DNA of 64,000 nucleotides from an uncultured Myxococcales bacterium (lineage in GTDB: Bacteria > Myxococcota_A > UBA9042 > CAZBRS01), in contig CAZBRS010000018.1 in NCBI GenBank assembly GCA_964494475.1, positions 26,058 through 90,057 on the forward strand, given 5' to 3'. Of the stretch, positions 14,730-32,277 are shown one piece after another. The notes beneath the pieces are model-generated. The model saw only the letters and a program-made list of their open reading frames with translations, did no database searches and had not been told where the DNA came from. The first letter of the stretch is position 1, and each line of letters begins with the position of its first letter. The position numbers were made by a program, and so were the translations under genes.

Positions 14730-14732
14730 AGC

Positions 14733-15881
14733 ATGACCGATCGCGTGGGGATCTGCGCCGTCGCCCAGACGACGTACGTTCGTGACCGCTCGGATCAGCG
14801 CTTCCAGGGGATGGCGCTGGAGGTGGTCGGCGAGCTGCGCCGCCAGACCGGCCTCGGCTTCGAGCCGGGCCGGGGCATCGACGCCACCATCAGCGTGTCC
14901 GACGACCTGTTCGACGCCCGCACCATCTCGGACAACGCCATGACCGATGTGCTGGGCGCGCACCTCGGGTGCGAGGAGAAGGTGGCCCAGGAGGGGCTGC
15001 AGGCGCTGTACTACGGCCTGGCCATGATCCGCTCGGGCCACGCCGACGTGGTGCTGGTGGTCGGGCACTGCAAGGAGTCGCAGGGCGAGAGCCGCAACCA
15101 GGTGACCCACCTGGCCTTCGACCCGTTCTTCACGCGGCCCGTGGGGCTCGACTTCCAGGCCGCGGCCGCGCTGCAGGCGCAGGCCTACCAGGCCGCGGCG
15201 GGCCTCACCGAGCGGCACCTGGCCGAGATCGTCGTGCGCGCCCGCGCGGCCGGCGCCGCCAACCCGCACACGCCTGAGATCACCGCCGTCACCGCCGACG
15301 AGGTGCTGGCGTCGCCCATGCTGGCCGATCCGATCCGCCAGGCGCACGCCTGGCCGGTCTCCGACGGGGCCGTGGGGTTGATCCTGGCCTCCGAGGAGCG
15401 CGCGCGTGCTTTGACGGGAACGCCCGTGTGGCTCGAGGGGGTGGGCTGCTGCCTCGACACCTTCTTCCTCGGTGACCGTGACCTCACGGGCAACTTCGCG
15501 CTGAAGAAGGCCGCCGCGCGCGCCTACGAGCGGGCGGGCGTGGCCGACCCCCGGACCGCCTTCGACGTGGTCGAGGTATCCGACGCCTACGCCTACCAGC
15601 AGCCGCTGTGGCTCGAAGGTCTCGGCCTCTGCGACCCCGGGCGGGGAGCGCGCTTCCTGGACGGTGGGGGCGCCGAGCGCGCGAACGTGAACCGCTCGGG
15701 GGGGCTCCTGGCCGGCAACCCGCTGATCCTCGGGGGGTTGGTGCGCGCCGTCGAGGCCACGCTGCAGCTCACGGGGCGGGCGGGCACCCGCCAGGTGCCG
15801 AGCGCCCGGCGGGCGTTGGCTCAGGGCGCCATGGGGCCCGCGGGGCAGTTCCACTCCGTCGCCGTGCTCGCCAGGGATTGA
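14733..15881 (+). CDS. Thiolase-like (SCP-x/lipid-transfer type) protein
   Basis: Thiolase-fold layout with C-terminal NRSGGLLAGNPLILGG... motif. Confidence 0.75.
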   Translation: MTDRVGICAVAQTTYVRDRSDQRFQGMALEVVGELRRQTGLGFEPGRGIDATISVSDDLFDARTISDNAMTDVLGAHLGCEEKVAQEGLQALYYGLAMIRSGHADVVLVVGHCKESQGESRNQVTHLAFDPFFTRPVGLDFQAAAALQAQAYQAAAGLTERHLAEIVVRARAAGAANPHTPEITAVTADEVLASPMLADPIRQAHAWPVSDGAVGLILASEERARALTGTPVWLEGVGCCLDTFFLGDRDLTGNFALKKAAARAYERAGVADPRTAFDVVEVSDAYAYQQPLWLEGLGLCDPGRGARFLDGGGAERANVNRSGGLLAGNPLILGGLVRAVEATLQLTGRAGTRQVPSARRALAQGAMGPAGQFHSVAVLARD

Positions 15882-15892
15882 GGGGGACCACC

Positions 15893-17101
15893 ATGACGCA
15901 CAAGCGACGGAACGTCGGCATCCTCGGCACCGGGCAGACCGTGCACTCGAGCCACCGCGAAGACGTGAACCAGCCCGAGCTCATCTGGGAGGCCGTCAGC
16001 GCGGCCCTGGCCGACGCGGGCGTGGGCCTCGACGACATCGGCTGCATCGTGCACGGCAACATGGAGCTGTTCGAGATGGTGCACCAGCCCGACCTGTGGC
16101 ACGTGCTCGGCACGGGCGCCTACGGCAAGGAGGCCCTGCGGGTCACCACGGGCGGCACCACGGGCGCCACGCTGGCCTGCGCCGGCGATCACCTGGTGGC
16201 CTCGGGGCTGCACGATCTGGTGCTGGTGGTCGGCTTCGAGAAGCTGCAGGAGGGCCACACCACGGGCGGCATCACCAACATGGCCGACCCGCTGTGGGGG
16301 CGCAGCCTGCAGACCGGGGCCCTCACGGGCATGACCGCGCAGGCCATGATCGACGAGTTCGGCGCCGAACGCGCCAAGCGAGCCGCCATGCGCCACCGCG
16401 TGCTCATGGACCGCCACGCCATGAAGAACCGGCACGCCCACCGGCGCTTCGGCCTGACCTTCGAGCAGATCGACGATCTGATGCGCACCAGCCCCCCGCT
16501 GGTGGGCGAATTGCGCATGATCCACATGTGCTCCCAGAGCGACGGCGCGTGCGCCGTGGTCCTCTGCAGCGAGGAGGTCGCGCGGCGCCTGGGGAAGAAG
16601 GTGGCCTGGATCCACGATCACGTGACCGTGCACCGCGAGGAGACCTTCACCCTGTTCGGGCAAGAGAAGGTGAAGTCCACCATGCGCGTGGCGGCCGAGC
16701 GCCTGTTCGCGCGGAACGGCATCAGCGATCCGCGCCGGCAGCTCGACCTGTTCGAGATGTACGACCCCTCCAGTTGGTGGGGCCTCGACTGGCTGCGCGA
16801 GTTCCTGCTGCTCGAGGGCGACCAGCACCTGCAGATGGTCGAGAACGACGAGATCGCCCTGGACGGGAGCTTCCCCGTGAACCCCTCGGGCGGCGTGATC
16901 GCCTCGAACCCCATCGGCGCCACGGCGCTGGTGCGCGTGGCCGAGGCGGCCAACCAGATCCGCGGGTGCGCGGGCGAGCACCAGGTCGCGAAGACCGTCC
17001 GGCGGGCGCTGGCGTCGGGCTTCGGCGGCACGTACTGGACGGTGCTCATGCTGCTCGGCGCCGACCCGCTACCTCTCGAGCGCGATGGAGGTGCGGCATG
17101 A
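15893..17101 (+). CDS. Thiolase-like (SCP-x/lipid-transfer type) protein
   Basis: GGTTGATLAC..., C-terminal NPSGGVIASNPIGATA... typical of nonspecific lipid-transfer thiolases. Confidence 0.8.
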   Translation: MTHKRRNVGILGTGQTVHSSHREDVNQPELIWEAVSAALADAGVGLDDIGCIVHGNMELFEMVHQPDLWHVLGTGAYGKEALRVTTGGTTGATLACAGDHLVASGLHDLVLVVGFEKLQEGHTTGGITNMADPLWGRSLQTGALTGMTAQAMIDEFGAERAKRAAMRHRVLMDRHAMKNRHAHRRFGLTFEQIDDLMRTSPPLVGELRMIHMCSQSDGACAVVLCSEEVARRLGKKVAWIHDHVTVHREETFTLFGQEKVKSTMRVAAERLFARNGISDPRRQLDLFEMYDPSSWWGLDWLREFLLLEGDQHLQMVENDEIALDGSFPVNPSGGVIASNPIGATALVRVAEAANQIRGCAGEHQVAKTVRRALASGFGGTYWTVLMLLGADPLPLERDGGAA

Positions 17102-17958
17102 GCGACGTGAAGACCGAAGCGCGGCCCGAGGGCGTCACGGTCGCCGACATCTTCGGCACCATGGAGGGGCGCGTGAACCCCGGCGGAGTGGCTGGCGTCA
17201 GCGCCAACTACGCGTACAAGGTGACGGGCGAGGGCGGGGGCGAGTGGACGGTGTGCGTGAAGGACGGCGGCGTGAGGGTGCTGGCGGGCGTGCACGAGCC
17301 CGCCGTGACCTCGACCATCAGCGCGGCCGACTGGATCGACCTGACCCTCGGCAAGCTGGACGGCATGACGGCCTTCACGTCGGGGCGCCTGACGGTCGAG
17401 GGCGACCTGGGGCTCATGGGGAAGGCCTCGAAGTTCTTCAAGAAGTACCTGCCCCCCGGGGGCGAGGCGCGCGAGGCCCCCAAGGCCGAGCTGATCGTCT
17501 TGAAGCAGCTCTTGTCGTTGAACCAGCGCTTCGCGACGGGGCCGCTCCTGGGGCGCTTCCTGGCCGAGCTGCGCGACCACAAGCGCCTGCTCGCGAACCA
17601 GTGCCCGGTGTGCGGGCGCAAGCAGATTCCGCCGCGCGAGGTGTGCGCCGTGTGCCACGTGCCGGTCGACGAACTGGTCGAGGTGGGGCCGGCGGGCGTG
17701 GTCTGCTTCTACGACATCGCCTACTACGCGAGCCCCGACCCGCTGACGGGCGAGAGCCGCGAGACGCCCTACTGCTCGGCGTTCATCCTGCTCGACGGGT
17801 GCGCGGGCAACGACGTGCTGTGGCACGAGGTGAAGCCGACCGACATCCCCCGGCTGAAGCCCGGCGTGCGCGTGCGGCCCGTGTGGGCCGAGCAGCGCGC
17901 GGGGGCCATCACCGACATTCGCTACTTCGAGATCGTCGACGAGGCGGTGACCGCATGA
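17098..17958 (+). CDS. SCP2 sterol-carrier domain fused to DUF35 Zn-ribbon/OB-fold domain
   Basis: SCP2 part ...LDGMTAFTSGRLTVEGDLGLMGKASKFF. DUF35 part CPVCGRKQIPPREVCAVC plus an OB-fold. ATGA overlap upstream. Confidence 0.75.
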   Translation: MSDVKTEARPEGVTVADIFGTMEGRVNPGGVAGVSANYAYKVTGEGGGEWTVCVKDGGVRVLAGVHEPAVTSTISAADWIDLTLGKLDGMTAFTSGRLTVEGDLGLMGKASKFFKKYLPPGGEAREAPKAELIVLKQLLSLNQRFATGPLLGRFLAELRDHKRLLANQCPVCGRKQIPPREVCAVCHVPVDELVEVGPAGVVCFYDIAYYASPDPLTGESRETPYCSAFILLDGCAGNDVLWHEVKPTDIPRLKPGVRVRPVWAEQRAGAITDIRYFEIVDEAVTA

Positions 17959-18851
17959 GCACGACCCTGAAGGCCACAGCGAGCGACGCGTTCGTGATCG
18001 AGGGCAAGCTGGCGCTGCCGTACCAGTACTTCGCGGGGGCCACGGGCAGCCGCTTCCTGGTGGCGCTCCGCGACGAGCACAAGCTGCTGGGTACGCGCTG
18101 CCCCACCTGCGGCAAGGTGACCGTGCCGCCGCGGCCGACCTGCGAGCTGCACCCCGGGCCGGCCACCGAATGGGTGAGCCTGCCGGGCACCGGCGAGATC
18201 GCCGGCTTCACGGTGATCCGCTACGCAGAGCCCTACCAGCCCTGCAAGCCGCCCTACGTGCTGGCGCTCATCAAGCTGGACGGCGCCGACAGCCGATTGA
18301 CCCACGTGGTCAAGGGCGTGGCCCCCAGCCAGGTGCGGGTGGGCCTGCGCGTGAAGCCGGTGTTCGCGAAGGCGCCCGTCTCGACCCTTCTGGCCATCGA
18401 CCACTTCGAGCCCGACGAGAGCCCGTTCCAGCTGGGCCTCGGCTACGACGAGCTCGAGGTGGGCATGAGCGCGTCGGTGTCGAAGACCATCACCGAGACC
18501 GACGTGTACCTGTTCGCGGGCATCTCGGGCGACTTCAACCCCATGCACGTGAACGAGCAGTTCGCGAAGACCACGCCCTTCGGCACGCGCATCGCCCACG
18601 GGGCGCTGGCGCAGTCGCTGCTGGCGCCGGTCCTGGGCATGAAGCTGCCGGGGCTCGGCACCATCGCCCTCGAGGTCACGGCGCGCTTCAAGGCGCCCAC
18701 GCACTTCGGCGACACCATCACGTGCAAGGCCACCGTGTCGGAGCTGTTGCCCGAGAAGAGGTGGGTGCGCCTGAGCGCGGTGTGGACCAACCAGGACGGG
18801 CAGGTGGTGGCCACGGGCTCGGCGCTGGTGCTGCCTCCGCAGAAGGGGTAG
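17955..18851 (+). CDS. DUF35 Zn-ribbon/OB-fold domain fused to MaoC-like (R)-hydratase
   Basis: CPTCGKVTVPPRPTCE plus an OB-fold, then MaoC hot-dog motif LFAGISGDFNPMHVNEQFA...IAHGAL. ATGA overlap upstream. Confidence 0.8.
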   Translation: MSTTLKATASDAFVIEGKLALPYQYFAGATGSRFLVALRDEHKLLGTRCPTCGKVTVPPRPTCELHPGPATEWVSLPGTGEIAGFTVIRYAEPYQPCKPPYVLALIKLDGADSRLTHVVKGVAPSQVRVGLRVKPVFAKAPVSTLLAIDHFEPDESPFQLGLGYDELEVGMSASVSKTITETDVYLFAGISGDFNPMHVNEQFAKTTPFGTRIAHGALAQSLLAPVLGMKLPGLGTIALEVTARFKAPTHFGDTITCKATVSELLPEKRWVRLSAVWTNQDGQVVATGSALVLPPQKG

Positions 18852-18916: not shown

Positions 18917-19714
18917 TCAGCGCCGTGCGTCCTCGTCTCGCGGCGCCGGGCGCTCGGGCGGCGGTGACGGTTTGTGAAAGATCTCGTGCGCGTCCGCGTA
19001 GAGCGAATCCAGGCTGGCTCCATCGTGCGCTTTGAACAGTCCCTTGATTCGCAGCTCCATCTCCGGCGAGAAAGACCCATTCTCTTCCAGGTGCTGCTTT
19101 GGCATGTTCAATCTTCCGAGTATTATCGTGTCATTTACATATGGTCGAATTTTTCTCAGCAGGGGTCTCAGGTCCTCATCCAGCATCGGCTCGCACGAAA
19201 CGCTCGTGGCGAACCCTGCCGAGTGGGCGTACTTCAAGCATTCGAGCCGCTCCGAGAACTCCGGGGCCCCGGGCTCCCAGTACCGCAGGGTCTCCGGGTC
19301 GCACGAGCCGATGGTGAACCTGAACAGTATCCTGTCCTTGAATTCCGAAAAGCGTTCACATATGGCTGCAATGCACTGCAGTTGTGGTTTGGAGACCAGG
19401 AGCACCCGGGCGTAGGCGGTGAGCAGTTCGGCGATGAAGTCGAGGCACTCCGGCAGGATTTCTGGCGTGATGTCGTGCGTCGACGGGAACATCACGGTCT
19501 CTTGGAGCAGGGGCGTGCGTGGCTTGATCTTGCGCCTGCTCCTGCGCATCTTCGGATCTTTCCATCCATTGATGTCTGTACGTTTGAAGCGTATGGAAAC
19601 AGCCTTCGCGTGACAATACAGGCAGTTGTTAGAGCAGCCTATGGCTATATTTTTTTCTGTGTCTGCCCACTTTTTTGGTCCGTGAGTGTCATTTTTTATG
19701 TCATAATTGCCCAT
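18917..19714 (-). CDS. Radical SAM protein, SplB/COG1533-like
   Basis: IAIGCSNNCLYCHA (CxxxCxxC). Conspicuously low GC. Start is 2 nt after the upstream stop. Confidence 0.8.
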   Translation of the reverse strand: MGNYDIKNDTHGPKKWADTEKNIAIGCSNNCLYCHAKAVSIRFKRTDINGWKDPKMRRSRRKIKPRTPLLQETVMFPSTHDITPEILPECLDFIAELLTAYARVLLVSKPQLQCIAAICERFSEFKDRILFRFTIGSCDPETLRYWEPGAPEFSERLECLKYAHSAGFATSVSCEPMLDEDLRPLLRKIRPYVNDTIILGRLNMPKQHLEENGSFSPEMELRIKGLFKAHDGASLDSLYADAHEIFHKPSPPPERPAPRDEDARR

Positions 19715-19716
19715 GG

Positions 19717-20686
19717 CTACCTCTCTCGTTCGCGATCGCCGTGATCTTGTGCATCACGTTGAGGTCCGGGCCGAGGGGGATCGTCGCTGAGGTAGCCCCC
19801 ATGCCGGTGCCCGCACAACTCGAAGAACCGCCCGCCGAGCTGCAGGTTGTTGCGCAGGATTCGTCCCCAGCTCGATTCGGGCGGGTACGTCTGCAGCAGA
19901 ATGTGGCGGATGTCGTCGGGGGCGCTCCAGATCTCGCCAAGGGTCGACATCTCGTCGATCCGGCCGAGGTGACACGCGCGCTTCAGCGCCGGAAAGCTCT
20001 CTTCGAGGTAGATCGCCGCCGACCAGTACACGTTCCCATCGCAGTCGACGACGGCGTCGTTGTGGAGGAGGAAGGGCGCGATGGGCTCTGCCGCGTTCAT
20101 CAACAGCGGCGGGGACTTCCTGGCGATCAGATCACCGATCTCCTGGAGAAAGCGGGACGCCTCGTCCTCCGACCACTCGATCCCGACGCGAAAGAAGATC
20201 TCGACCCGCGGCACTCCGGCGGCCGCCAGGGTGTTCATGGTGGCGTGCACCGTACCAAGGTCGGAGGGCGCGACCACGACGTTCACGCAGTGCCACACGC
20301 CGGCCTGTCGGAGCAGCGCCGAGCGCCGGGCGGCGACGTCCTGGCCGCAGGCGAGGTTCAGGAACACCTGCAGCCGCTCGGCCGGGAAGATCCCCAGCGT
20401 GTCGTCGTCGAGCCGGAGCCCGTTGGTCGCCAGCGCATAGCGCACCCGCTTGCCGGAGCCGAGGGCGCGGCGTTCGGCCAACGCCACGGCTTCGCGCACG
20501 AGATCCGGGCGCTCCAGGGGCTCGCCGCCGAAGAAGACCAGCGTGACCTCGGCCCCCTGCGACGTGAACAGGAGGTCGATCGATCGGACCAGGAGATCGG
20601 AGCCCATGTCCTCCGTGCGCTTGTCGACCCGGCAGTAGGCGCAGCGAAGAGCAACTCCTCGTGACCATGACCTGCAGGTGGCGCAT
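19717..20686 (-). pseudogene. Radical-SAM paralog with frame disruption inside the CxxxCxxC motif (pseudogene or sequence error)
   Basis: Frame A from ATG 20686 reads MRHLQVMVTRSC. The frame of ORF 19717..20607 continues LRCAYCRVDKRTEDMGSDLL...GGEPL. Relative to the plus-strand paralog (CSLRCSYC), two nt of one codon are missing near 20650. Confidence 0.6.
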
Positions 20687-20717
20687 GCCCGGACCGGGGT
20701 TCGGGTCTGGCGTCACG

Positions 20718-21407
20718 TTAGCCATCGGCTCGGCTCGTGCGTGGCCCGAAGGGTTCGGTCGGGTAGGCGTGCCGGCCGGACTTCCGCAGCATGACCACGG
20801 CCTCGAAGCGGTCGGGCGTCGGATCGGCGGCGGGGTCGACGTGGACGAGCCGGCAGGTCTCCACGTAGTCGGGATTCCACGAGAAGAGGCGCGAATAGTC
20901 CATCTTGTAGCTGAACATCCCTTCTCGTGGCAGGTAAGGGTTCTTGTAGGGGAACGGTGGGCAGAAGTCCGACACGACCATCGTCCCTCCGTCGCGCAGG
21001 CACCGGTCGGCTTCGCAGGCGATCTTGAAGAGGTGCCTTCGGTCAACCAGGTACAGGCAGAAGCCCAGGATGATCGTATCGAAGGACTCGTCCGGATACC
21101 CCAGGTCGTCGGCGGTGCCGATGCGAAGGTCCAGCTCGGGCCAGGTGGCCTTCCCGTCCTCGATGGCGATCGTCGACGGGTCAATCCCATGACACTCCGT
21201 CCCGAAGAGCGCGTGGATCCGGCTCAGTCGACAGCCGTTGCTGCAGCCCACCTCGAGGAGTCGGGCCGGACGGAGGGACATCGCCTGCAACGCCGAGACG
21301 ACGCGGTCGCTCTTCTTCATGAACGACTCGCGATTCTGGCGGAACCACCCATCGCCTTCGGACGCGAGGAAGAGGTCTCTCTGCAACGTGCTCTCGTGGG
21401 TCGTCAT
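20718..21407 (-). CDS. Class I SAM-dependent methyltransferase (resembles the methylase family of pseudaminic-acid/flagellin-glycosylation loci)
   Basis: Motif I LLEVGCSNG, post-I HGIDPS, DTIILGFCLYLV, tail FPYKNPYLPREGMFSYKMDY. RBS GGAGAGGGAAG. Confidence 0.8.
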   Translation of the reverse strand: MTTHESTLQRDLFLASEGDGWFRQNRESFMKKSDRVVSALQAMSLRPARLLEVGCSNGCRLSRIHALFGTECHGIDPSTIAIEDGKATWPELDLRIGTADDLGYPDESFDTIILGFCLYLVDRRHLFKIACEADRCLRDGGTMVVSDFCPPFPYKNPYLPREGMFSYKMDYSRLFSWNPDYVETCRLVHVDPAADPTPDRFEAVVMLRKSGRHAYPTEPFGPRTSRADG

Positions 21408-21485
21408 GGCCCCTGCTTCCCTCTCCGGCGGCCCGGTGCTTCCCCCGGTTCTCGCCGGCCGGGGTCACCTCCGCTGCTGTCCCCA

Positions 21486-21514
21486 ATGATGACGACGGGT
21501 GCGGAGAACGTCAA
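21486..21514 (-). promoter_or_regulatory. Weak sigma-70-like promoter candidate for the minus-strand operon (TTGACG-N17-CATCAT)
   Basis: Read on the minus strand within the 250-bp divergent intergenic region. Confidence 0.25.
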
Positions 21515-21634
21515 GCCACCCGCCCGCCGCGCAGGCCCGAGCCGCTCGTTCGGGAGGGAGGTCGCGTTCGACCGGGACGCCCGCGGGGTGAGTCGTCGGA
21601 GGGCCGCGCTTCGAGCCCGGCGGGGGCCCCGGCG

Positions 21635-21662
21635 TTGACTTCGACCAGGCCCAACGTATGCT
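21635..21662 (+). promoter_or_regulatory. Sigma-70-like promoter candidate (TTGACT-N16-TATGCT)
   Basis: If used, the first ATG (21658) lies inside the -10 element. The true start would then be ATG 21670, 21691 or 21727 (MYHLELMVTRSC, colinear with the paralog start). Confidence 0.3.
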
Positions 21663-24255
21663 CACGGCGATGTCTTTCCCGTGGAATCCGATGAAACGCG
21701 CGCCCGCGCCCGTGCCCGACAGGCAGATGTATCACCTGGAGCTCATGGTCACCCGGAGCTGCTCCCTGCGCTGCTCGTATTGCCAGGTCGATCGGCGCCA
21801 GGAGAGCATGTCTCCGGAGATCGTGCGGGCTTCGGTGGAGTTTCTGTTCACCGCGGGCGCCGGCGACCTCGAGCTGCTCTTCTACGGCGGAGAACCGCTC
21901 GAGCGGTTCGATCTCGTCCGCCTGGCCGTCGAGCTCGCCGAGCAGCGCTCCGCCGAAACGGGCAAGCGCGTGAGCTACATCCTGATCACGAATGGGCTCC
22001 GCCTCGATCAGCACGTCCTGCGGGCCTTTCCGGCCGACCGCCTGAAGGTCTACCTCAATCTCGTCGCCCCCATGCCCGCCAGGCAGGCGGAGGGCCCGGG
22101 CGCTGTGTTGCCCTCCGAGATCCGGGGTCGCGTGGCGATGCTCGAAGCCGCCGGCGTCTGGCAATGCGTGAACGTCGTGGCCGATCCGGCCGACCTCGAG
22201 CCCCTGCGCTGGGCGCTGGCTGCGTTGACCCAGGCCCGCGTGCCGCGGCTGCAGGTGTTCTTTCGACTGGGCGCCGAGTGGCCGGAGGAGGCCGAGGCCG
22301 CGTTCCTCGACGAGATCGGCCGCCTCGTGGCCGGCCCCGACGTGCCCAGATTCCTGAACGCCGAAGAGCGAATGGCCCCGTTTCTCCTGCACAACGACCC
22401 CGTGGTCGACTGCGACGGCAGCCTCCATTGGTCGGCCGCGATCTGGCTCGAGCAAGGGTTCCCCGAGCTCATGCAGAGCTGTCGCATCGGTCACGTGCGC
22501 GAGACCACCAGCTTCGACGAGGTCTGGGCCGAGCCCGACGACATCCGCCGGATCCTCCTCGAGACCTATCCCCCCCAGTCGCCCCAGGGCCGGATCCTTC
22601 ACAACAACGTGGCGCTCGCCGACCGCTTCTGCCGGGTATGTGCCGCGTCGCCAGCCGGATCGCCCCCCCTGCCGGCCGTGTCGCCGAATTCGGGCCACCC
22701 GGAGCGCCGGGCGTTCTTCCTGTGCAGCACGGAGGCCGGTTGCCCGGTCAACCTGTCGTTCACCATCCAGTTTCACAACTACATCACGGAGAACGAGTGG
22801 TCCTTCCGCGACGTCGAGTCGTCCGATACCATCGTCATCGTGAACTGCAGCACGCTGCCCGAGTATCGGCGCCGCGTGCCGCTCACGGTCGAGTATCTGG
22901 CGAAGCGCTATCCGTCGAAGACGATCCTCGTCACGGGTTGCTTCGTGAAGCACGACGTGGTCGAAGCCGACAACGTCATCTACGTGAAGATGTCGCGCAA
23001 GGACGACTTCGACGCGCTCTTCGGGGCGACCGTCCGGTTCAAGGACGTGTCGCCGATCTCGACGGCCGAGGCTGACACGAAGGTGCGCGCGCTCGACGCC
23101 GCGAAGAAGGGTGGCGTGCCCTACAACATATCCATTGCCACCGGCTGTACGAACAACTGCTCTTTCTGTATCCAGAAAACGATATTTACGACAATCGAAA
23201 GCGTGCCTGTTGATGCTGTAATTTCTGGCTTGTTGGATGGAATTGAAAAAGGGTATACGAATTTCGTGATCGGTGGTGCCGACATCTCGTCCTATGGTCA
23301 CGACCTCGGCATCGACGTGACCGACCTGTTCGAGGCCTTGTTCACCCGGGTGCTCCGCGCGAACCCCCGGCTGTCGATCGGATTCTGGGCGTTCGAACCC
23401 CGCGGGCTCCTGAAGCACTTCGAGGAACTGAAGGCCTACTTCGCCGAAGGCTTGATAAACTGGGTGCGAATTCCCGTTCAATCCGGCAGCGACAGCGTCC
23501 TGAAGAGCATGAACAGGAAGTACAAGGTAAGAGACGTTCTGGATGCTATAAACGAATTGCGCATCCTGTCTCCTGCCATGAGGATCGACACGGATCTGCT
23601 CTTCTGCTATCCGACCGAGACCGAGGCAGATTTCGAAGCGTCCCTCGGAATAATTGACTATTTCGACGCCACGAGCCTGATCGTCTTCGGCCGGCACGAG
23701 AACACCCGGGCCTTCGCGATGCAGGATGTGTTCTCGGCTGACGAGAAGGCGCGCCGGTGCGAGGTGCTCGAGTCGATTCGGGCGAAGCAGACCGCGGGCA
23801 AGGAGAGCCAGGCAAGCCAGGGCATCGAGATCCAGTTGCCGTCGGCGCAGGGCGCGTCTCGGTTCTTCGTTCTCCAGGAGTCTGACCTTCAGCGTCCGGC
23901 GCTCCAGACGCCGCGGCCTCCCGAAGCGCCGCGCCCCGAGGAGGTCGGCGCCGCTCCTGCCCCCGACGACGCCGACACGGCGCGCCTGCGCCGCGTGGGC
24001 GAACTGCTGGCCGGCAAGGGCATCGAGCTCCAGTGGGCCGAGGGGCGCCTGGACCTCGTCTTCCCGGATGACGCGCAACCCGACGGCACGTCCTGCGTGT
24101 CCGTGTCCAGGGTCTCCGACGGCGCGAACGTGTACGGCAAGAGCGGGGCCCTCGGCGTGTGGCACTCCGGGAGCCTCCTCACGCCACGCATCTCGAGGGT
24201 GCTCTCGGGCGTCCTGCAGCAGCTCGAGCGCCTGCGCAGCGAAGCGTCGGACTGA
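21658..24255 (+). CDS. Double radical-SAM fusion: radical-SAM paralog + MiaB/RimO-like methylthiotransferase module + novel C-terminal domain
   Basis: N-terminal part has CSLRCSYC + GGEPL, about 50% identical by eye to the minus-strand paralog. Middle part is UPF0004-like (IVIVNCS...VTGC) then IATGCTNNCSFC...IPVQSGSDSVLKSMNRKY. The last 95 aa are shared with the second U32 protein. Confidence 0.8.
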   Translation: MLTAMSFPWNPMKRAPAPVPDRQMYHLELMVTRSCSLRCSYCQVDRRQESMSPEIVRASVEFLFTAGAGDLELLFYGGEPLERFDLVRLAVELAEQRSAETGKRVSYILITNGLRLDQHVLRAFPADRLKVYLNLVAPMPARQAEGPGAVLPSEIRGRVAMLEAAGVWQCVNVVADPADLEPLRWALAALTQARVPRLQVFFRLGAEWPEEAEAAFLDEIGRLVAGPDVPRFLNAEERMAPFLLHNDPVVDCDGSLHWSAAIWLEQGFPELMQSCRIGHVRETTSFDEVWAEPDDIRRILLETYPPQSPQGRILHNNVALADRFCRVCAASPAGSPPLPAVSPNSGHPERRAFFLCSTEAGCPVNLSFTIQFHNYITENEWSFRDVESSDTIVIVNCSTLPEYRRRVPLTVEYLAKRYPSKTILVTGCFVKHDVVEADNVIYVKMSRKDDFDALFGATVRFKDVSPISTAEADTKVRALDAAKKGGVPYNISIATGCTNNCSFCIQKTIFTTIESVPVDAVISGLLDGIEKGYTNFVIGGADISSYGHDLGIDVTDLFEALFTRVLRANPRLSIGFWAFEPRGLLKHFEELKAYFAEGLINWVRIPVQSGSDSVLKSMNRKYKVRDVLDAINELRILSPAMRIDTDLLFCYPTETEADFEASLGIIDYFDATSLIVFGRHENTRAFAMQDVFSADEKARRCEVLESIRAKQTAGKESQASQGIEIQLPSAQGASRFFVLQESDLQRPALQTPRPPEAPRPEEVGAAPAPDDADTARLRRVGELLAGKGIELQWAEGRLDLVFPDDAQPDGTSCVSVSRVSDGANVYGKSGALGVWHSGSLLTPRISRVLSGVLQQLERLRSEASD
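23968..24252 (+). other. Shared C-terminal domain, copy 1
   Basis: RLRRVGELLAGKGIELQW...FPDDAQPDG...LGVWHSGSLLTPRISRVLSGVL. 39/81 identical, ungapped, to the copy at 26427..26684. Confidence 0.7.
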
Positions 24256-24297
24256 GCACGGCGGGCCACCGATGGTCGGGAGAATGGGGAGGACAGG

Positions 24298-25236
24298 GTG
24301 ACATCGTCACGGACGCTGCCGGCAGGAGCCACGCGCGCTGCGCCCGGGCCCGTCGCCCCCCGACTGCCGGCGGGCGAGGATGCCGGAGCGCGGCCGGAGT
24401 GGGCGATCGCCGCGGGGGTCCCCGAGATCCAGGCGGCGGAGGCCTCGGGCGACCTGCAGCCCGCCGAGAGAGGATGGTCGGCGACCCTGTACAGCGGCGA
24501 ACCGGTGGTCTTTCAGCGGCTCTACGCCGGGGAGGAGTTCTGTCGCCACCTGATCCCCGGTCGCACGCGATGGCGATCGCTCCTGGCCCTGGCCGAACGG
24601 CGCGGCGTGCCCGTCACCCTGACGACCCCGCCCGCGACCGAGGACGACCTGGCCCGTCTCTCCGTGCTGTTCCGAATGCTCTCGGGGTCGCCGGGAGCCG
24701 AAGTCGTGGCCAACGACTGGGGCGTGCTGAGCCTCGTCCGGCGACGATTTCCCGACCTGCGTCCGCTCCTGGGGCGAGGCCTGCGTCGCCAGAGGAAGGA
24801 TCCACGATCCAAGGACCTCGCCCACCCGGGAGCCATGGCCCGGGAACTGCAGGACCTCCTCGCCCACCTTGGCGTCGATCGGGTCGAGGCCGACTGGTTG
24901 CCCGACGACGCGTCGCCCATCCCGCTGGTGATGCACGTGCCCTTCGCGTTCCTGGCCAGCGGCAGCCTGTGCGCCCTCAGCGGCTTGAATCGGCCCGTCT
25001 ACGAGAAGTTCCGCCCCGACCAGCCCTGCGCCGCGCCGTGCCGCGGGCTTCGGGCGCAGCTCCGCCACGCCGCGTTCAGCGCGCCGGTGCTGCTGAAGGG
25101 CAACACGCTGTTCGGTCAGAATGGCGTGGGCCTGGCCTCGGCCGCCCGCCCCGACGTCGCGCGCCTCGTGTACGACCTGGACACCGACGTGGAGCGGCGG
25201 TTCCTGAGGCCGACCCCCGAGGCCCGAAGACCATGA
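24298..25236 (+). CDS. U32-family protein, UbiV-like
   Basis: LYAGEEFC..., VVANDWGVL, HVPFAFLASGSLCALSG...DQPCAAPC, the four-Cys layout of U32 Fe-S proteins. GTG start with a GGAGG RBS. Confidence 0.7.
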   Translation: MTSSRTLPAGATRAAPGPVAPRLPAGEDAGARPEWAIAAGVPEIQAAEASGDLQPAERGWSATLYSGEPVVFQRLYAGEEFCRHLIPGRTRWRSLLALAERRGVPVTLTTPPATEDDLARLSVLFRMLSGSPGAEVVANDWGVLSLVRRRFPDLRPLLGRGLRRQRKDPRSKDLAHPGAMARELQDLLAHLGVDRVEADWLPDDASPIPLVMHVPFAFLASGSLCALSGLNRPVYEKFRPDQPCAAPCRGLRAQLRHAAFSAPVLLKGNTLFGQNGVGLASAARPDVARLVYDLDTDVERRFLRPTPEARRP

Positions 25237-26687
25237 AGATCGTAGCCGCCATAGCCACTTCCGCAGACGTGGAGCCCCTGATCGCGGCCGGCGCCGACGA
25301 GCTCTACTGCGGGGTCGTACCGGCCGGGCTCGGGCGCACGGAGGATGCCTGCCGGTTGAACCGTCGCTACAGCCCGAACGCGAACATCGGCAGCCTCGAC
25401 GACTTCGCCGCGCTCGTCGAGAGCGCGCGCGCCCGGGCCGTGCCGGTCTCGGTGACGCTGAACGAGCACGCGTACGACCCGGAGTTGATCCCGGCGCTGG
25501 TCGAGCTGGCGGGCAACCTGGCGGCGGCGGGCGCCCACGCGCTGATCGTGACGGATCTCGCGCTGATCCTGGCGATCCGACGGGCGGGAGTGGCGGTGGA
25601 CCTGCACCTCTCCAGCGTCGCCACCTGCTACAACTCCGAGGCCGCGAGGTTCTTCGCCGATCTCGGGATCCAACGCGTCATCCTTCCCAGGTACCTCTCG
25701 CCCCGGCAGATCTCCGTCCTCCGTGCAGCCGGCGCACCGGTCGACTACGAGGTCTTCGTCATGAACGACGGCTGCGGGTTCGAGGAGGGGCTTTGCATGA
25801 GCCTGCACCGGCCCCTCGGGCCCATGTGCCAGATGCCGTGGGACGCCGAGTTGGTGTCCGACGGGCCGATCTCGCCGGCGCTCGCCCAGGCCTGGGACGA
25901 GAACTGGAAGGCGTACCGGTGCTTGATGAATCTCCTGGACCACCCCGGCGGCACGGTCTCGCCCCAGGGCATTCCCAACGGCCCCTGCGGGGTGTGCGCG
26001 TTGCCGGCGTTGAAGGCGGCGGGCGTCGGCTACGTCAAGGTGCCCGGCCGGGAGTACCCGCCCGCGGTCCGATCCGGAGCGGTTCGGTTCGTGAAGACCG
26101 TCCTCGACGCGGTCGAGCGCGGAGAATCGTCCGAGGCCGTGCAGGGCCGGGCGCGGGCCCTGAAGGCCACGCCCCTGCTGTGCGACAGCACCCTGACGTG
26201 CTACTTCCGTGCGGGCATCCCGTCCGGTGGCTCGAACCCCGTCGTCGTTCCGGACCTCTCCCTGGCCGACCTCGCGGCCGCGGTTCGCTTCCAGCGTGGA
26301 GCGATGGGGGAGGCGTGCCGTCCAACGGGGGCGTGCAGCCCGGGTGCCCCGTCGGATTCCCCGACCGTGGAGGCAACTCCGCCGCCGCCGCCCGCCGCCG
26401 CCGTTCGCTCGACGCCGGACGTCGAGGGGCCCGACGCGACGCGCCTTCGACGAGTCGCGGACGCGCTGGGCGACAAGGGCATCGGCGTCCGGTGGATCGA
26501 CCGGGGGCTGGAGCTCTCCTTCCCCGACGACGCGCAACCCGGAGGCGCCTCCCGCGTCACGGTGGCCGCGATCGATCCGGCCACGCGCTGCTTCGCGACG
26601 AGCGGAGGCCTCGGGCTCTGGTATTCGGGGGGCGTCCTGACCCCGCGCGTGGCGCGGATGCTCAAGGGAATCCTGCGGCTGCTCTGA
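25233..26687 (+). CDS. U32-family protein, UbiU/RlhA/TrhP-like, with extra C-terminal domain
   Basis: AAGADELYCG, VSVTLNEHAY, HALIVTDLAL, RVILPRYLS, EVFVMNDGCGFEEGLCMSLHRPLGPMC. ATGA overlap with the upstream U32 gene. Confidence 0.8.
   Translation: MKIVAAIATSADVEPLIAAGADELYCGVVPAGLGRTEDACRLNRRYSPNANIGSLDDFAALVESARARAVPVSVTLNEHAYDPELIPALVELAGNLAAAGAHALIVTDLALILAIRRAGVAVDLHLSSVATCYNSEAARFFADLGIQRVILPRYLSPRQISVLRAAGAPVDYEVFVMNDGCGFEEGLCMSLHRPLGPMCQMPWDAELVSDGPISPALAQAWDENWKAYRCLMNLLDHPGGTVSPQGIPNGPCGVCALPALKAAGVGYVKVPGREYPPAVRSGAVRFVKTVLDAVERGESSEAVQGRARALKATPLLCDSTLTCYFRAGIPSGGSNPVVVPDLSLADLAAAVRFQRGAMGEACRPTGACSPGAPSDSPTVEATPPPPPAAAVRSTPDVEGPDATRLRRVADALGDKGIGVRWIDRGLELSFPDDAQPGGASRVTVAAIDPATRCFATSGGLGLWYSGGVLTPRVARMLKGILRLL
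26427..26684 (+). other. Shared C-terminal domain, copy 2
   Basis: RLRRVADALGDKGIGVRW...FPDDAQPGG...LGLWYSGGVLTPRVARMLKGIL. Confidence 0.7.
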
Positions 26688-26812: not shown

Positions 26813-28276
26813 ATGACGAGAAGCGGGTTCGAATCCTCCTTCGGTCTCTTCGTGATCCTGCTCACCGGCCCATGGCTCGCGGGGGCGTGTTCGGCCGAGG
26901 GCACGGCGAGCGCCGACGTGACCACGGCTCCGGATCTGGTCGTCGTGCCCGCCGGCTTCGACGGTGACGCCTTGCTGGGCACCCTGGACTCCACGGGGTG
27001 CTTCGACCTTTGCACCTGGATCGGCGCCGAGTTGCTGGACGAGGCTCCGGTGAGCATCTGCTCCTCCGTGGACTACTGCCTGTCGTTCTGCGCCCTCGCG
27101 CCGAAGCTGGCGACCCGGCCGTGCGACGTCAGCCTGGCCGAGTTCGCCACGTGCATGGACGCCGCCGGAGCCTCGCCGTGCACGAATCCGACCGACTCCC
27201 TCGACAGTCCCGCGTGCTTCGGGGTCTGGGCCTGCATGATGCTGCCCGGCGACACGGTCAAGGTGGCCGAGATCGAGCACCTGGCGATGCGGCTCCTCTG
27301 CGACGAGTTGAGCCTGGCCATGGGCGTGCCGTTCTCGCCGACCCCGCAGCCGACGTGGTCGGAGTGCGTCTCTTCCCTCCTGGGCTTCGCGTGCCGCTGC
27401 ACCGCCGAGGACCCGGCCGGTCTTTCGGCAGGCTGCGCGGTGACCGTCGGTGACGCGCTCGCGTGCATCGACCTCGCGAAGCCCGGAGACCTGCCGGACA
27501 GCCCGGGCTGCGCTCCCTTCCGGACCCAGGTCTCCGGGGCCTACGATCCGGACGCCCACCTCGTCGATCTCGACTGCGTGCAGGTCCGGAAGCTGTGCCA
27601 GGATTCCATCCCCGAGCAGGGCAACCTGCCCGAGAGCCCTGCGTGCAAGCCCGAGAACGGCGTCCTCGATGCAGATTACCGGGCCCCCGTGGAGACCTGC
27701 ATCGCCTCGGTCGGCTCCCTTCGCTGCCACTGCGACGCCAACCCGGCGGGACCCGGCTGCGACGCGGGCATCGACCGGCTGCAGTCGTGCATCGCCGACA
27801 GCTACGTGGACGGATGTGCCTATCTCGGCAGCGGCGTCTGCATCGCGCCGGGCAACCAGGCCTCGGGGATCCCGGGCGACGTGAAGATCTCGGAGGCCTC
27901 TGCCGACCTCCTCGAGCAATGGTGCTCGTGGCGCGTCTGCTTCGGCGGAGGGCCGGACTTCGCGGGCCACGGATGCGTGAGCGGTGCGTTCGCGACGCAG
28001 GTGCCGGACGTGGCCGGGTGCGTCGAGGACCTGACGTACCACTTCGCTGCCTGCGACGTGACGATCGCCGACGTGGAGCAGTGCCTGTACGCCGTCCACA
28101 CGAGCGATTCCTGCGAGCGCCTGGCCACGTTCGGCGCCTGCACCTCCGTCGAGAACAAGGCGCTCGCGTACTCGGTGTGCCACTACCTGTACTACGAACC
28201 TTGTGACGCGGTCGTCAACTGCCTCGCCGCCGGCTGGGACATCCCCCTGCAGCCGCCCGACGGCTACTCCCTGTGA
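26813..28276 (+). CDS. Cysteine-rich lipoprotein, function unknown
   Basis: Signal ...FVILLTGPWLAGAC. Many paired Cys. An alternative GTG start exists at 26804. Confidence 0.6.
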   Translation: MTRSGFESSFGLFVILLTGPWLAGACSAEGTASADVTTAPDLVVVPAGFDGDALLGTLDSTGCFDLCTWIGAELLDEAPVSICSSVDYCLSFCALAPKLATRPCDVSLAEFATCMDAAGASPCTNPTDSLDSPACFGVWACMMLPGDTVKVAEIEHLAMRLLCDELSLAMGVPFSPTPQPTWSECVSSLLGFACRCTAEDPAGLSAGCAVTVGDALACIDLAKPGDLPDSPGCAPFRTQVSGAYDPDAHLVDLDCVQVRKLCQDSIPEQGNLPESPACKPENGVLDADYRAPVETCIASVGSLRCHCDANPAGPGCDAGIDRLQSCIADSYVDGCAYLGSGVCIAPGNQASGIPGDVKISEASADLLEQWCSWRVCFGGGPDFAGHGCVSGAFATQVPDVAGCVEDLTYHFAACDVTIADVEQCLYAVHTSDSCERLATFGACTSVENKALAYSVCHYLYYEPCDAVVNCLAAGWDIPLQPPDGYSL

Positions 28277-30456
28277 TTCGGCGCGCCGTCCTCCTCCTCG
28301 CGGCCGTGGTGGCCTGCTCCGGGCCGCCCGGCGCGACGGAAGACGGGGGCGCCCTCGGCGACGGCGGACGTGACGAAGAGACCGCCGGCAAGGTGCCCTA
28401 CCTCACGCGACTGCCCACCGTCGAGGCGTTCGAGGCGGTGGCGGCGGGCGGTCGCGAGGTCAAATACCTCGCTCCTCTCGCGGGCTCTGCGACGACGCCT
28501 CCGCTCGTCGAGCCCTGCTACTTTCAGAACATGGACCTGTTCCCCTGGCACCTCGATTTCCTGAAGTCGTTCCCGGAGACCGAGGCCAGCACGATGGCCG
28601 AGTACTCTGCCTGGGTGCTCCGCGGCCCGACGCGCCGCTGGTGGGGAGGCTCCCTTCGCCGCTGGCCCGCCGTCGCCCACCCCGTGACGCGCCAACCCGG
28701 GCTCGTCACGTTCCAGGTCTACAACGAGGACGTGGCGGGGAATCCCTTCCCCCTCACGGGCATCACCGAGCTCGCGGAGACCTTGAAGACCTGCGCCGGG
28801 TTTGCGGCCGATCGGCTGGCGTTTCTCCCCCTCGGGACGAGTCAGCTCCAGGTGGCGGAGTTCTACCGGGAGGTGCTGGCCGCGAAGGGCGTCACGGTGG
28901 TCCTGCCGGAAGATCTGGCCGCGGCGTCCGGCGTCGACATCCTGGTCGAGGGGGAAGCCTACGGCTACCTGAACGTCGTCCCGGACGGACAGGCTCTCGA
29001 GGACTACGGGCCCCGGGACGTCGTCGTGGTGCGCAGCGCGCCCTCGGACCTGTCCATCGTGGCCGCGCTCATCACGGCGGATCCGCAGAACGAGTTCAGC
29101 CACGTGAACCTCCGCCTGGGCGAGAAGGGCATCCCGAACGCGTCGATTCCGGGGATCTATACCTGGCCGGACCTCGACGCGAAGCAATCCCTGCTCGTCC
29201 ACGTCGTGGCCGGGGAGAGCTCCGTCGAGATCCGGCTCGCCGCGCTCGAGGACGCAGAACGGTTCTGGGACTCCACCCGGCCCGCCTCCATCTCGGTCGT
29301 GTCGGACCTGGCTCCCGTCGCCCTGCGCGGATACGACGAGCTCCGCTTCGGCGATGCCCCGGCGTTCGGAGCCAAGGCCGCGAACCTGGGCGAGCTTCAC
29401 TCCATCCTCGCCCCGCAGGCTCGCGTCGAGGGGTTCGGAGTTCCCGTCTCGCACTACCGGAGGTTCGTCGACGAGCGGGGAGTCCAGGCCGCCATCGAGC
29501 TCATGGTGGCCTCGCCGGCCACCTTCACCGACGCCGACCTCCGCCGTGCGGCGCTGAGGTCGATCCGGGACAAGATCCGCGAGGCTCCGCTGCTCCCGGA
29601 GTTCGAGGCCGCGCTCCGTCTGCGCTTGGCCGACGTCTATGGGCCGGGGGTCGGGACGCTTCGGGTGCGGTTCCGCAGCAGCTCGAACTCCGAAGACCTG
29701 TCCGTGGCGAGCGGCGCCGGCCTGTACGCTTCGCGAAGCGGATGCCTCGCCGACGACGACGACGCCGATGACGCCGGACCCTCCGCGTGCCTGGGCGCCA
29801 TCGAGCGGGCCGAGCTCGAACGCCTGCTCGATCTGCGCCTGAAAGAGCAGGAGGACTGCCCGGACTGCCCCTGGCTCGCCGACGTCATCGCGGATCTCGA
29901 GGAGGATCTGACCGAGGAGAAGACGGTCGCGGATGCCGTGCGCAAGGTGTGGGCCAGCCTGTGGAGCGACCAGGCGTTTCAGGAGCGAGAGTACTGGGGG
30001 ATCGATCATCGCGCCGCCACCATGGCGATCGCCGTGAACCCGACGTTCGTCCTCGAGACGCGGGACGCGATCGCCGTGACGGGGCTGCCCGCGAGCGACG
30101 GGACGACGCTGGTCCGGGTGATCACGGTCGTTGCGCCCGAGAGCGTCGCAGAGCCGCTGGATCCGCGGGTCGTGGCCGAGGTCCTGACGTTCAGGAGAGC
30201 GGTCGGAGATCCCACCCCCCACGACGTGTCCGTCCTCGTGCCGTCTTCCCAGGTCGCGGGAGCGATGCCGCTCTGGACGGACGAGGAGGTCGCGAAGCTG
30301 GCCGGCCTGCTCTTCACGGCGCACGATCACTTCGCGAGCCTTCCCTGGACGGGCGCCGCCCCCACGAGCTTCGACATCGAGATCAAGAAGGACGTCGAGG
30401 GGCGGCTCGTCCTGAAGCAGGCGCGGCCCTATCTCCTCGATCCCTGGACACTCTAG
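28273..30456 (+). CDS. Lipoprotein with PEP/pyruvate-binding (PPDK_N, ATP-grasp) domain
   Basis: Signal MIRRAVLLLAAVVAC. FGAKAANLGEL...GFGVPVSHY... and VRFRSSSNSEDLSVASGAGLY match the PEP synthase/PPDK N-terminal domain. GTGA overlap upstream. Confidence 0.7.
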   Translation: MIRRAVLLLAAVVACSGPPGATEDGGALGDGGRDEETAGKVPYLTRLPTVEAFEAVAAGGREVKYLAPLAGSATTPPLVEPCYFQNMDLFPWHLDFLKSFPETEASTMAEYSAWVLRGPTRRWWGGSLRRWPAVAHPVTRQPGLVTFQVYNEDVAGNPFPLTGITELAETLKTCAGFAADRLAFLPLGTSQLQVAEFYREVLAAKGVTVVLPEDLAAASGVDILVEGEAYGYLNVVPDGQALEDYGPRDVVVVRSAPSDLSIVAALITADPQNEFSHVNLRLGEKGIPNASIPGIYTWPDLDAKQSLLVHVVAGESSVEIRLAALEDAERFWDSTRPASISVVSDLAPVALRGYDELRFGDAPAFGAKAANLGELHSILAPQARVEGFGVPVSHYRRFVDERGVQAAIELMVASPATFTDADLRRAALRSIRDKIREAPLLPEFEAALRLRLADVYGPGVGTLRVRFRSSSNSEDLSVASGAGLYASRSGCLADDDDADDAGPSACLGAIERAELERLLDLRLKEQEDCPDCPWLADVIADLEEDLTEEKTVADAVRKVWASLWSDQAFQEREYWGIDHRAATMAIAVNPTFVLETRDAIAVTGLPASDGTTLVRVITVVAPESVAEPLDPRVVAEVLTFRRAVGDPTPHDVSVLVPSSQVAGAMPLWTDEEVAKLAGLLFTAHDHFASLPWTGAAPTSFDIEIKKDVEGRLVLKQARPYLLDPWTL

Positions 30457-31965: not shown

Positions 31966-32277
31966 TCAAGGGAGCGCGGCCTCAGGGCCGGGCCGCAGCT
32001 GGATCAGGGTCGCGCCCCACCCGCCCGCGCCGGAGTCGGCTGTTCGGAACGACAGGACGGCGGGGTGACGCTGGAGCACGCCCTCGACGATGCGACGCTG
32101 CACACCCACGCCCTTGCCGTGGATCACCCGCACGCCGAGGATGCCCCGCGCGCGGCATTCGTCGAGGTACGTGGCCACCACGTCGGCCACGTCGCGGGGC
32201 CGGAACGTGTGCAGGTCGAGGGTGCCGTCGATGGGCACCTCGACGGGCTCGCCGTCGTACGCGTCGTCGTCGGTCAT
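31966..32277 (-). CDS. Smr-domain protein
   Basis: IDGTLDLHTF...VRVIHGKGVGVQR...SGAGGWGATLIQL. RBS GAGGTGG. Only the 3' end of the 1791-aa listed ORF is real. Confidence 0.8.
   Translation of the reverse strand: MTDDDAYDGEPVEVPIDGTLDLHTFRPRDVADVVATYLDECRARGILGVRVIHGKGVGVQRRIVEGVLQRHPAVLSFRTADSGAGGWGATLIQLRPGPEAALP

Follow-up and report, generated by a model that had tools for sequence, protein, structure and literature searches.

A rare divergent gene cluster with a radical-SAM/methylthiotransferase fusion and a U32 protein pair: a candidate O2-independent modification cassette in an uncultured Myxococcales bacterium

Gene content and enzyme families of the divergent cluster

We analysed a stretch of 64,000 nucleotides (nt) from an uncultured Myxococcales bacterium (assembly GCA_964494475.1, contig CAZBRS010000018.1, positions 26,058 to 90,057), referred to below as the window, with a guanine-plus-cytosine (GC) content of about 70%. 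At 18917-26687 it carries a divergent cluster of six open reading frames (ORFs): on the minus strand a trio encoding a small radical S-adenosylmethionine (SAM) protein, a stand-alone radical-SAM paralog and a methyltransferase, and on the plus strand an 865-aa fusion protein followed by two U32-type proteins, U32-1 and U32-2. The six ORFs, the minus-strand gaps of 31 and 2 nt, the ATGA overlap between U32-1 and U32-2 at 25233-25236 and the motifs LLEVGCSNG, GCSNNCLYC, CSLRCSYC/GGEPL, GCTNNCSFC, EEFC/SLCALSG/QPCAAPC and GCGFEEGLCMSLHRPLGPMC, all reported in a first-pass annotation of this DNA, were found in the sequence and its translations. The same annotation counted four radical-SAM domains; all four are encoded, but one is disrupted by a frameshift in the window sequence. 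Its family assignments held only at the superfamily level upon profile hidden Markov model (HMM) comparison, but no NCBIfam equivalog cutoff was reached.

The cassette is made of recognisable enzyme superfamilies in a rare, previously undescribed arrangement. None of the six proteins reaches a curated NCBIfam equivalog and no paper in the literature collection searched links the families, in agreement with the earlier view that the gene combination is uncharacterised. Small-ORF comparison together with Rfam and tRNA searches found no precursor-sized ORF, Rfam family or tRNA within the cluster, and the profile search of the window proteins found in it no peptidase and no transporter or exporter, again as first described for precursor, RNA gene and transporter. 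Considered without its substrate, the locus is very probably an O2-independent C–H functionalisation cassette of iron-sulfur enzymes. Its features are the following:

18917..19714, minus strand: 265-aa small radical-SAM protein with GCSNNCLYC; closes the trio
19717..20686, minus strand: stand-alone QhpD/PapB-like radical-SAM paralog, 48% identity to the fusion N-domain
20718..21407, minus strand: 229-aa methyltransferase, class I and SAM-dependent; opens the trio; matches to Methyltransf_11/25/23/31
21408..21657: divergent intergenic region, one sigma-70-like hexamer pair per strand (plus, 21635..21662; minus, 21514..21486), predicted from consensus match; no credible small ORF
21658..22692, plus strand: fusion N-domain, radical-SAM (CSLRCSYC) of the QhpD/PapB/CteB thioether-maturase type, from NCBIfam, PDB and Cys alignments
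22705..23892, plus strand: fusion middle module, methylthiotransferase of the MiaB/RimO family without TRAM, from TIGR00089, PDB and alignment
23968..24252, plus strand: fusion C-terminal domain behind a Pro/Ala-rich linker, homologous to the U32-2 tail
24298..25236, plus strand: U32-1, UbiV-like partner subunit, 312 aa; no Pfam model; four invariant Cys
25233..26240, plus strand: U32-2 catalytic core, UbiU-like; ATGA overlap of its start with the U32-1 stop
26421..26684, plus strand: U32-2 C-terminal domain, second copy, behind a Pro/Ala-rich linker

The fusion exhibited a Radical_SAM match of 105 bits, in two stretches. Its N-domain gave PapB (8e-21) and QhpD (TIGR03906, 3e-17) in NCBIfam and CteB (5wgg, 1.4e-11) in the PDB, with all scores far under the equivalog cutoffs, and it shares 32% identity with a genuine QhpD. 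No SPASM match was obtained for the fusion with Pfam and the seven-Cys two-cluster motif is absent from it; instead of the full SPASM motif, the N-domain presents four further conserved Cys (C170, C252, C275, C325). The thioether maturases PapB and CteB, which act on peptides that are ribosomally synthesised and then modified post-translationally (RiPPs) of the ranthipeptide and SCIFF types, are its best curated and PDB matches, but the match covers just the first ~110-120 residues, and the N-domain shows no SPASM match, no N-terminal RiPP recognition element (RRE) and no adjacent precursor.

The middle module scored 176.7 bits with the MiaB/RimO family TIGR00089 (cutoff 251) and 22.5 bits with UPF0004 (cutoff 27), and matched MiaB (7mjz, 1.5e-20) and RimO (4jc0, 2e-16) in the PDB. 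In common with RimO, MiaB and MtaB, it has the UPF0004 Cys triad, which is kept in seven members of its clade and aligns with canonical MiaB, the CxxxCxxC core (GCTNNCSFC) and the signature motifs PVQSGS...MNR and TD...PxET. It differs from them by the lack of TRAM, by its place behind another radical-SAM domain and before a new domain, by scores under the subfamily cutoff, and by being part of a paralogous expansion, which reaches three copies in one locus (L005, described below). The absence of TRAM from the fusion was seen with Pfam, the profile match stopping at position 368 of 429; in the alignment, the TRAM-less clade ends about 40 residues past the core, where MiaB runs on into TRAM. 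Profile and PDB matches thus agree with the initial description of the fusion as a second copy of the paralog joined to a MiaB/RimO-like module.

U32-2 matched Peptidase_U32 (PF01136) with 104 bits against a cutoff of 22.4. Its nearest curated family is UbiU (NF047963; 74 bits, cutoff 440), with TrhP as the second-best NCBIfam match (45 bits, cutoff 534), and BLASTP against E. coli UbiU gave 25% identity (E 1e-13). Residues C182 and C189 align with UbiU C169 and C176, and C200 falls near UbiU C193; these three UbiU residues we take to be cluster Cys. The fourth cluster ligand of U32-2 is ambiguous, as the invariant CGxC offers alternatives.

Neither U32-1 nor its 62 database homologues matched a Pfam or NCBIfam model. 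Its residues C82, C225, C244 and C248 are invariant in 44 sequences, with the spacing Cx142Cx18Cx3C, and align with the four UbiV Cys C39/C180/C193/C197, to whose layout this spacing is close. With hhalign, U32-1 aligned weakly with the U32-2 family (E 2e-4 to 4e-3) and, collinearly, with UbiV (E 0.057). The AlphaFold2 model (predicted local distance difference test score, pLDDT, 84) had as top Foldseek match in the PDB the U32 peptidase Mk0906 (5d88, E 1.1e-3, template-modelling (TM) score 0.35-0.43), the sole U32 crystal structure, the other matches being generic TIM barrels. We assign U32-1 as a UbiV-like partner with moderate confidence.

Each U32 subunit has four conserved Cys predicted to be able to hold a [4Fe-4S] cluster. 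Of the pair with a UbiV/UbiU-type Cys layout proposed at first, the Pfam assignment of U32-2 and the four UbiV-aligned Cys stand, while U32-1 has no Pfam match, and a UbiV/UbiU-like reading of the pair appears reasonable from its sequence. In the same way as UbiU-UbiV, the O2-independent ubiquinone hydroxylase of E. coli, the pair consists of two adjacent, translationally coupled genes. It differs from it by the low UbiU score of U32-2, by extra invariant Cys in U32-2 (C26, CGxC, C317/C323) and a novel C-terminal domain, by the lack in the window of a UbiT partner or quinone pathway context, and by a U32-1 that Pfam does not recognise. The RNA hydroxylases TrhP and RlhA share the U32 catalytic domain, but the window encodes a two-subunit pair in another context, far under the TrhP cutoff and without an RNA-binding module.

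The fusion and U32-2 end in the same domain of ~90 aa (48% identity, E 1e-28), which the first-pass annotation had missed. This tail domain is kept in orthologous fusions and U32-2 proteins (P0002, P0018), and AlphaFold2 gave it an alpha-beta5-alpha arrangement with a pLDDT of 90.6. Searched exhaustively with HMMER, 1.84 billion representative proteins yielded just 17 matches, namely the proteins of this system, an 80-aa form that stands alone, one in tandem, and two further radical-SAM enzymes with a C-terminal copy (the last three kinds being P0023, P0024, P0027 and P0031); in a metagenome scan, the sole recovery was the already known P0004 contig. No PDB sequence match and no significant Foldseek match were obtained, the best being an AMPK-alpha C-terminal domain (CTD)/KA1-like fold (E 0.015, TM ~0.5), with frataxin-like matches worse. 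With stand-alone, tandem and radical-SAM-borne copies, the tail has a distribution that looks typical of an adaptor or docking module.

A PqqD-like RRE fold was also considered for the tail and rejected, as the structure comparison disagrees. Two proteins present a ~70-residue tail of similar pattern: a conserved 668-aa protein without Pfam match (5977-7983 of L005, minus strand), encoded divergently from the L003 and L005 clusters, and a radical-SAM protein (2288-3550 of L093, minus strand) convergent on P0004. As more distant copies of the domain they were rejected, the hhalign E of 0.07-0.2 not being significant.

Recurrence of the cassette and the wider U32 family

The fusion is extremely rare. 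A word-indexed search of 5.8 billion protein clusters returned just two matches, of 99% and 55% identity (the latter P0002), and it was found neither in 185,579 species genomes nor in the metagenome contig collection. A third fusion, of 882 aa and 47% identity, was reached through gene context in L005, a 64-kb metagenome contig. There, U32-1, U32-2 with the tail and the 882-aa fusion with the tail occur with a 341-aa radical-SAM gene and further radical-SAM genes, including two stand-alone TRAM-less methylthiotransferases and a B12-type enzyme. In L003, a groundwater "Deltaproteobacteria" metagenome-assembled genome, the U32 pair is accompanied by two TRAM-less methylthiotransferases, with no fusion, and the set is followed by carbamoyltransferase, AsnB-like and GT2 genes. 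In L007, the pair lies with carbamoyltransferase, PMT_2, deacetylase-like, AsnB-like and GT2 genes.

The U32 pair and TRAM-less methylthiotransferases (47-50% identity) thus recur together in two uncultured "Deltaproteobacteria" loci, L003 and L005, which are independent of each other, and the plus-strand part of the cluster is not a chance juxtaposition. The earlier proposal of an undescribed anaerobic-type modification pathway stands, and is strengthened by this conserved synteny and by the shared new domain.

The minus-strand trio has no counterparts in L003, L005 and L007. In full it recurs just in the Logan contig L001 and the JGI metagenome contig L002, both ~99-100% identical to the window. 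The P0002 contig has a 252-aa radical-SAM gene immediately upstream of the 55%-identical fusion, a possible counterpart by size alone. The trio appears to be a lineage-specific accessory, outside the conserved core. Its methyltransferase gave 46 bits with Methyltransf_11, and its best NCBIfam match was the DVU_1556 family (47 bits, cutoff 155). The small radical-SAM protein, encoded by a gene with a strikingly AT-rich 5' end, scored below the Radical_SAM cutoff (27.4 against 29.5 bits). It had been labelled SplB-like, a label that is barely supported: residues 132-178, 47 in all, partly match Rv2578c/PA0069 of the COG1533 type (E 1.7e-4, 20.8 bits against cutoffs of 360-430), and the protein has no sequence match in the PDB and no relative in the species genomes. 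It is best called, from its sequence, a small radical-SAM protein of no assigned type.

The middle gene of the trio, at 19717..20686, had been taken as a single radical-SAM ORF, which could not be maintained. Its span of 970 nt is not a multiple of three, and the ATG at 20686 and a 296-aa ORF at 19717..20607 lie in different frames. Within a short run of CT, a 2-nt (CT) deletion at ~20649-20652 interrupts CxxxCxxC between its first and second Cys. In L002, 99% identical to the window, the paralog is intact (323 aa, start MRHLQVMVTRSCSLRCAYC), and the deletion is the sole indel across 2.8 kb of the alignment; L001, which matches the window, carries the same deletion. The frameshift would reflect a strain variant or a recent pseudogene, or else an error in assembly that L001 has in common with the window.

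The GC content of the cluster is uneven. The minus-strand genes have 56-67%, below the 70% of the window, with 56% for the small radical-SAM gene and 64.5% for the methyltransferase; the methylthiotransferase module has 59%, against 69-75% for neighbouring modules. The values of the trio and of this module, being below the window average, suggest a mosaic horizontal assembly, with recent acquisition and domain shuffling.

A scan of the species genomes with the U32-1 profile recovered 244 relatives, and 80 loci (L013-L092) were examined. A large, unannotated family of partner subunits without Pfam model is thereby revealed. Anaerobes or denitrifiers account for most of the 80 loci (Thauera, Aromatoleum, Desulfosporosinus, Thermodesulfobacteriota, Omnitrophota, Acidobacteria, Bacillota). 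U32-2 adjoins U32-1 in 74 of them, and QhpC and QhpD lie within 10 kb of the pair in 27. In L008, L011 (Magnetospirillum sp. XM-1) and L012, the U32 pair forms the last, overlapping genes of qhpA-D-C-B-ABC-S8(-CcsA-like) operons. The qhp-linked pairs, which occur in Magnetospirillum, Thauera, Aromatoleum, Sedimenticola, Thermodesulfobacteriota and others, share 30-44% identity with the window pair, whose best match beyond its own clade is itself qhp-linked (L014, 44%).

In characterised qhp operons, the O2-dependent flavoprotein QhpG dihydroxylates a peptidyl Trp of the gamma subunit (PMC7876137). No UbiH/UbiI-like flavoprotein, used as proxy for QhpG, was found within 10 kb of these loci, and the literature collection searched contained no paper linking U32 proteins to quinohemoprotein amine dehydrogenase. 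The U32 pair comes last in these qhp operons, a position that calls for a Trp hydroxylase, which suggests that this family can hydroxylate a peptidyl residue without O2, as a possible O2-independent replacement of QhpG. The recurrence of this placement leads to a directly testable idea of how anaerobes may make the tryptophylquinone cofactor without O2.

The window itself resembles the qhp system in that the fusion N-domain and the paralog are QhpD-like and that qhp operons can close with U32 pairs of this family. It differs from it by the absence of QhpA, QhpB, QhpC, the S8 peptidase and the ABC exporter, by a SPASM region reduced to four conserved Cys, and by the fused methylthiotransferase, which the qhp system does not have. 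With tblastn, the L008 qhp subunits matched in the window just the QhpD radical-SAM core and, elsewhere, a generic ABC protein.

Other members of the family stand in unrelated or radical-SAM-rich contexts, as in Omnitrophota L090. Besides a B12-radical-SAM gene, this locus has two U32 pairs and a methylthiotransferase-like gene without the auxiliary-cluster Cys. Directly after its last radical-SAM gene, a 79-aa ORF (12956-13195, plus strand), with a leader-like N-terminus and a Cys/Gly/Asn-rich C-terminus, has the look of a RiPP precursor, with no homologue in the other loci.

Candidate substrates and proposed chemistry

We tentatively favour the joint reading that the locus is an O2-independent C–H functionalisation cassette of iron-sulfur enzymes which probably acts on a protein or peptide. 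The QhpD/PapB-type domain fused to a TRAM-less methylthiotransferase would form a bifunctional radical-SAM protein, in which the sulfur-donating auxiliary cluster is kept. The translationally coupled UbiV-like/UbiU-like pair would hydroxylate without O2, by analogy with UbiU/UbiV, TrhP and RlhA. On its flexible Pro/Ala linker, the tail domain may dock the enzymes to each other or to a common macromolecular substrate, so that a single molecule would undergo sulfur insertion, methylthiolation and hydroxylation. The minus-strand trio, whose QhpD-like member is inactivated here, may be an accessory set, probably for further tailoring. The likeliest substrate would be side chains of a protein or peptide whose gene lies elsewhere, and the chemistry may involve Asp, Glu or aromatic residues, as in RimO and when the gamma subunit of quinohemoprotein amine dehydrogenase is matured.

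A protein substrate is favoured by the loss of TRAM, the affinity of the N-domain for QhpD, PapB and CteB, the qhp association of the sister clade, the precedent of RimO, whose substrate is a protein Asp, and the adaptor-like tails. Relatives of the QhpD/PapB type make thioethers between Cys-S and the Asp or Glu carbon. The initial suggestion of a nucleic-acid base or an aromatic small molecule as substrate is, by contrast, not favoured, as TRAM is lost, the N-domain is nearest to peptide maturases and relatives stand in qhp operons.

Several observations weigh against the protein or peptide reading. The qhp association belongs to the sister clade, not to the window's own clade. No conserved precursor ORF emerged from an all-versus-all comparison of 20-140-aa ORFs of the window, L003, L005 and L007, which returned only shadow frames of large genes, and the intergenic gaps of the window hold no credible precursor ORF; the cluster is also devoid of a peptidase, a leader-recognition (RRE) domain and an exporter. 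In L003 and L007, the neighbouring genes for carbamoyltransferase, AsnB-like amidotransferase, GT2, PMT_2 and deacetylase point to a glycoconjugate, lipid or small molecule. The link of U32-1 to U32 proteins is weak at the sequence level (hhalign E 0.004-0.06), and the family matches, being under curated equivalog cutoffs, allow no confident transfer of activity.

To our knowledge, O2-independent hydroxylation by U32 proteins is known for few substrates, namely ubiquinone precursors, tRNA U34 and rRNA C2501, and methylthiotransferases act on tRNA and ribosomal protein S12 only. This locus would couple hydroxylation with methylthiolation by fusing genes, coupling their translation and sharing a new domain, with the RNA-binding module lost. 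Such a coupling in TRAM-less form makes a new substrate class likely for both enzyme families.

A bolder version, speculative and on balance unlikely, holds that the U32-1/U32-2 family comprises the first U32 hydroxylases of protein residues, replacing QhpG in the qhp operons of anaerobes and denitrifiers, that a derived version in the window works together with the QhpD-like/methylthiotransferase fusion and builds a new protein-derived cofactor or RiPP, and that the tail is a new class of docking domain. If true, the U32 pair would take the place of QhpG in making cysteine tryptophylquinone in these organisms, the product of the window would bear thioether or methylthio groups plus hydroxylated residues, and in radical-SAM pathways the shared tail would serve to dock substrates or partners.

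Of the alternatives to the protein or peptide reading, the one that survives best is that the cassette tailors a lipophilic or glycosylated small molecule, such as an isoprenoid quinone-like aromatic, a membrane lipid or an envelope glycoconjugate, which we regard as possible though somewhat unlikely. It largely corresponds to the aromatic small molecule of the first-pass annotation. The U32 pair would hydroxylate the substrate, methylthiolation and then O- or S-methylation would follow, and the tail would serve as a membrane- or complex-targeting module. This would fit with UbiU as the nearest curated family of U32-2, since UbiU/UbiV act on a quinone precursor, and with the weak matches of the methyltransferase, which include quinone methylases of the MenG/UbiE type. 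The neighbours in L003 and L007 named above, the GT2 genes and ABC-2 exporter that stand with the B12-radical-SAM gene beside a pair in Omnitrophota L090, and the absence of a precursor peptide from the gaps of the window and from the comparison with L003, L005 and L007 point the same way. The KA1/AMPK-CTD-type modules that are the structural analogues of the tail would also agree with it, but these Foldseek matches are not significant. On the other side, the cluster has no prenyltransferase, no chorismate, menaquinone or ubiquinone gene and no UbiT-type partner, and the window has none of the glyco or carbamoyl genes of L003 and L007. The SCP2 protein encoded nearby is fused to DUF35/ChsH2 modules in a thiolase/acyl-CoA dehydrogenase operon, and the fused radical-SAM domain is nearest to peptide maturases.

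Modification of tRNA, rRNA or DNA, yielding a hydroxylated and methylthiolated base under anaerobic conditions, with the U32 pair acting as TrhP or RlhA do and the methylthiotransferase as MiaB or MtaB, appears improbable. Among characterised families, the methylthiotransferase module scores best with MtaB and MiaB-like tRNA enzymes, TrhP comes second for U32-2 and the small radical-SAM protein is faintly similar to COG1533-type (SplB-like) proteins; nevertheless, all these scores are far under the equivalog cutoffs. The RNA-binding TRAM domain is absent from the whole methylthiotransferase clade, and the extreme rarity of the fusion, three or four sequences among 5.8 billion protein clusters and none in the species genomes, is unlike housekeeping RNA modification. 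The PDB search gives no support for SplB, and a defence or phage origin was rejected, as PADLOC and PHROGs gave just generic radical-SAM or methyltransferase matches.

That the locus is a decaying, horizontally acquired mosaic, in which the trio has nothing to do with the adjoining plus-strand operon and the system has stopped working in this organism, is very doubtful: one gene is frameshifted, the GC content is uneven and the minus-strand genes lack homologues in L003, L005 and L007, but the frameshift is a single 2-nt change absent from the 99%-identical L002, all other ORFs are intact with all catalytic Cys conserved, the 48% identity between the paralog and the fusion N-domain ties the two operons functionally, and the P0002 contig also has a radical-SAM gene immediately upstream of its fusion.

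Flanking genes and other features of the window

The flanks of the cluster look unrelated to the cassette. Upstream, at 12618-18851 on the plus strand and convergent on the cluster, lie genes for an acyl-CoA dehydrogenase, two SCP-x-type thiolases, an SCP2-DUF35 fusion and a ChsH2/MaoC hydratase, which look like a lipid or steroid side-chain beta-oxidation operon. A UbiT-like role of the SCP2 gene was considered and rejected on account of its fusion partners and its operon.

Downstream, 126 nt after U32-2 on the same strand, the gene at 26813-28276 encodes a predicted lipoprotein with a LAGAC lipobox, of 487 aa, with 39 Cys and no Pfam match. It shares a 4-nt overlap with a PPDK_N-like gene (28273-30456), and it is not kept beside related clusters. 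A phosphopantetheinyl transferase gene is likewise found downstream. At 32065-37023 (plus strand), an ORF of ~1650 aa contains a long run of acidic repeats of the DAAPD/HDAAPE type near its N-terminus, and its later segments, judged by eye, have a CotH-type and lamin-tail-type look.

Two tRNA-Ala were predicted with ARAGORN, at 15774-15869 (plus strand) and 42251-42326 (minus strand). The first, of 96 nt, is probably a false positive, since it lies where two thiolase ORFs (14733-15881 and 15608-17101) overlap. If the second is real, the TTG-start ORF whose 5' end it overlaps (41025-42311, minus strand) probably has an overcalled start.

The glutamine synthetase encoded at 46858-48327 (minus strand) reached at most 56% identity among its best 80 matches in the scan of the 185,579 species-representative genomes, which leaves the source lineage without a close sequenced representative in that genome set. 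Finally, small ORFs at 39290-39902 (minus strand) and 40100-40470 (107 and 94 aa) have the look of a HigB/HigA-type toxin-antitoxin pair; beside them stands a short tandem repeat, which reads as GEVT when translated from one strand and as FPGD from the opposite one.

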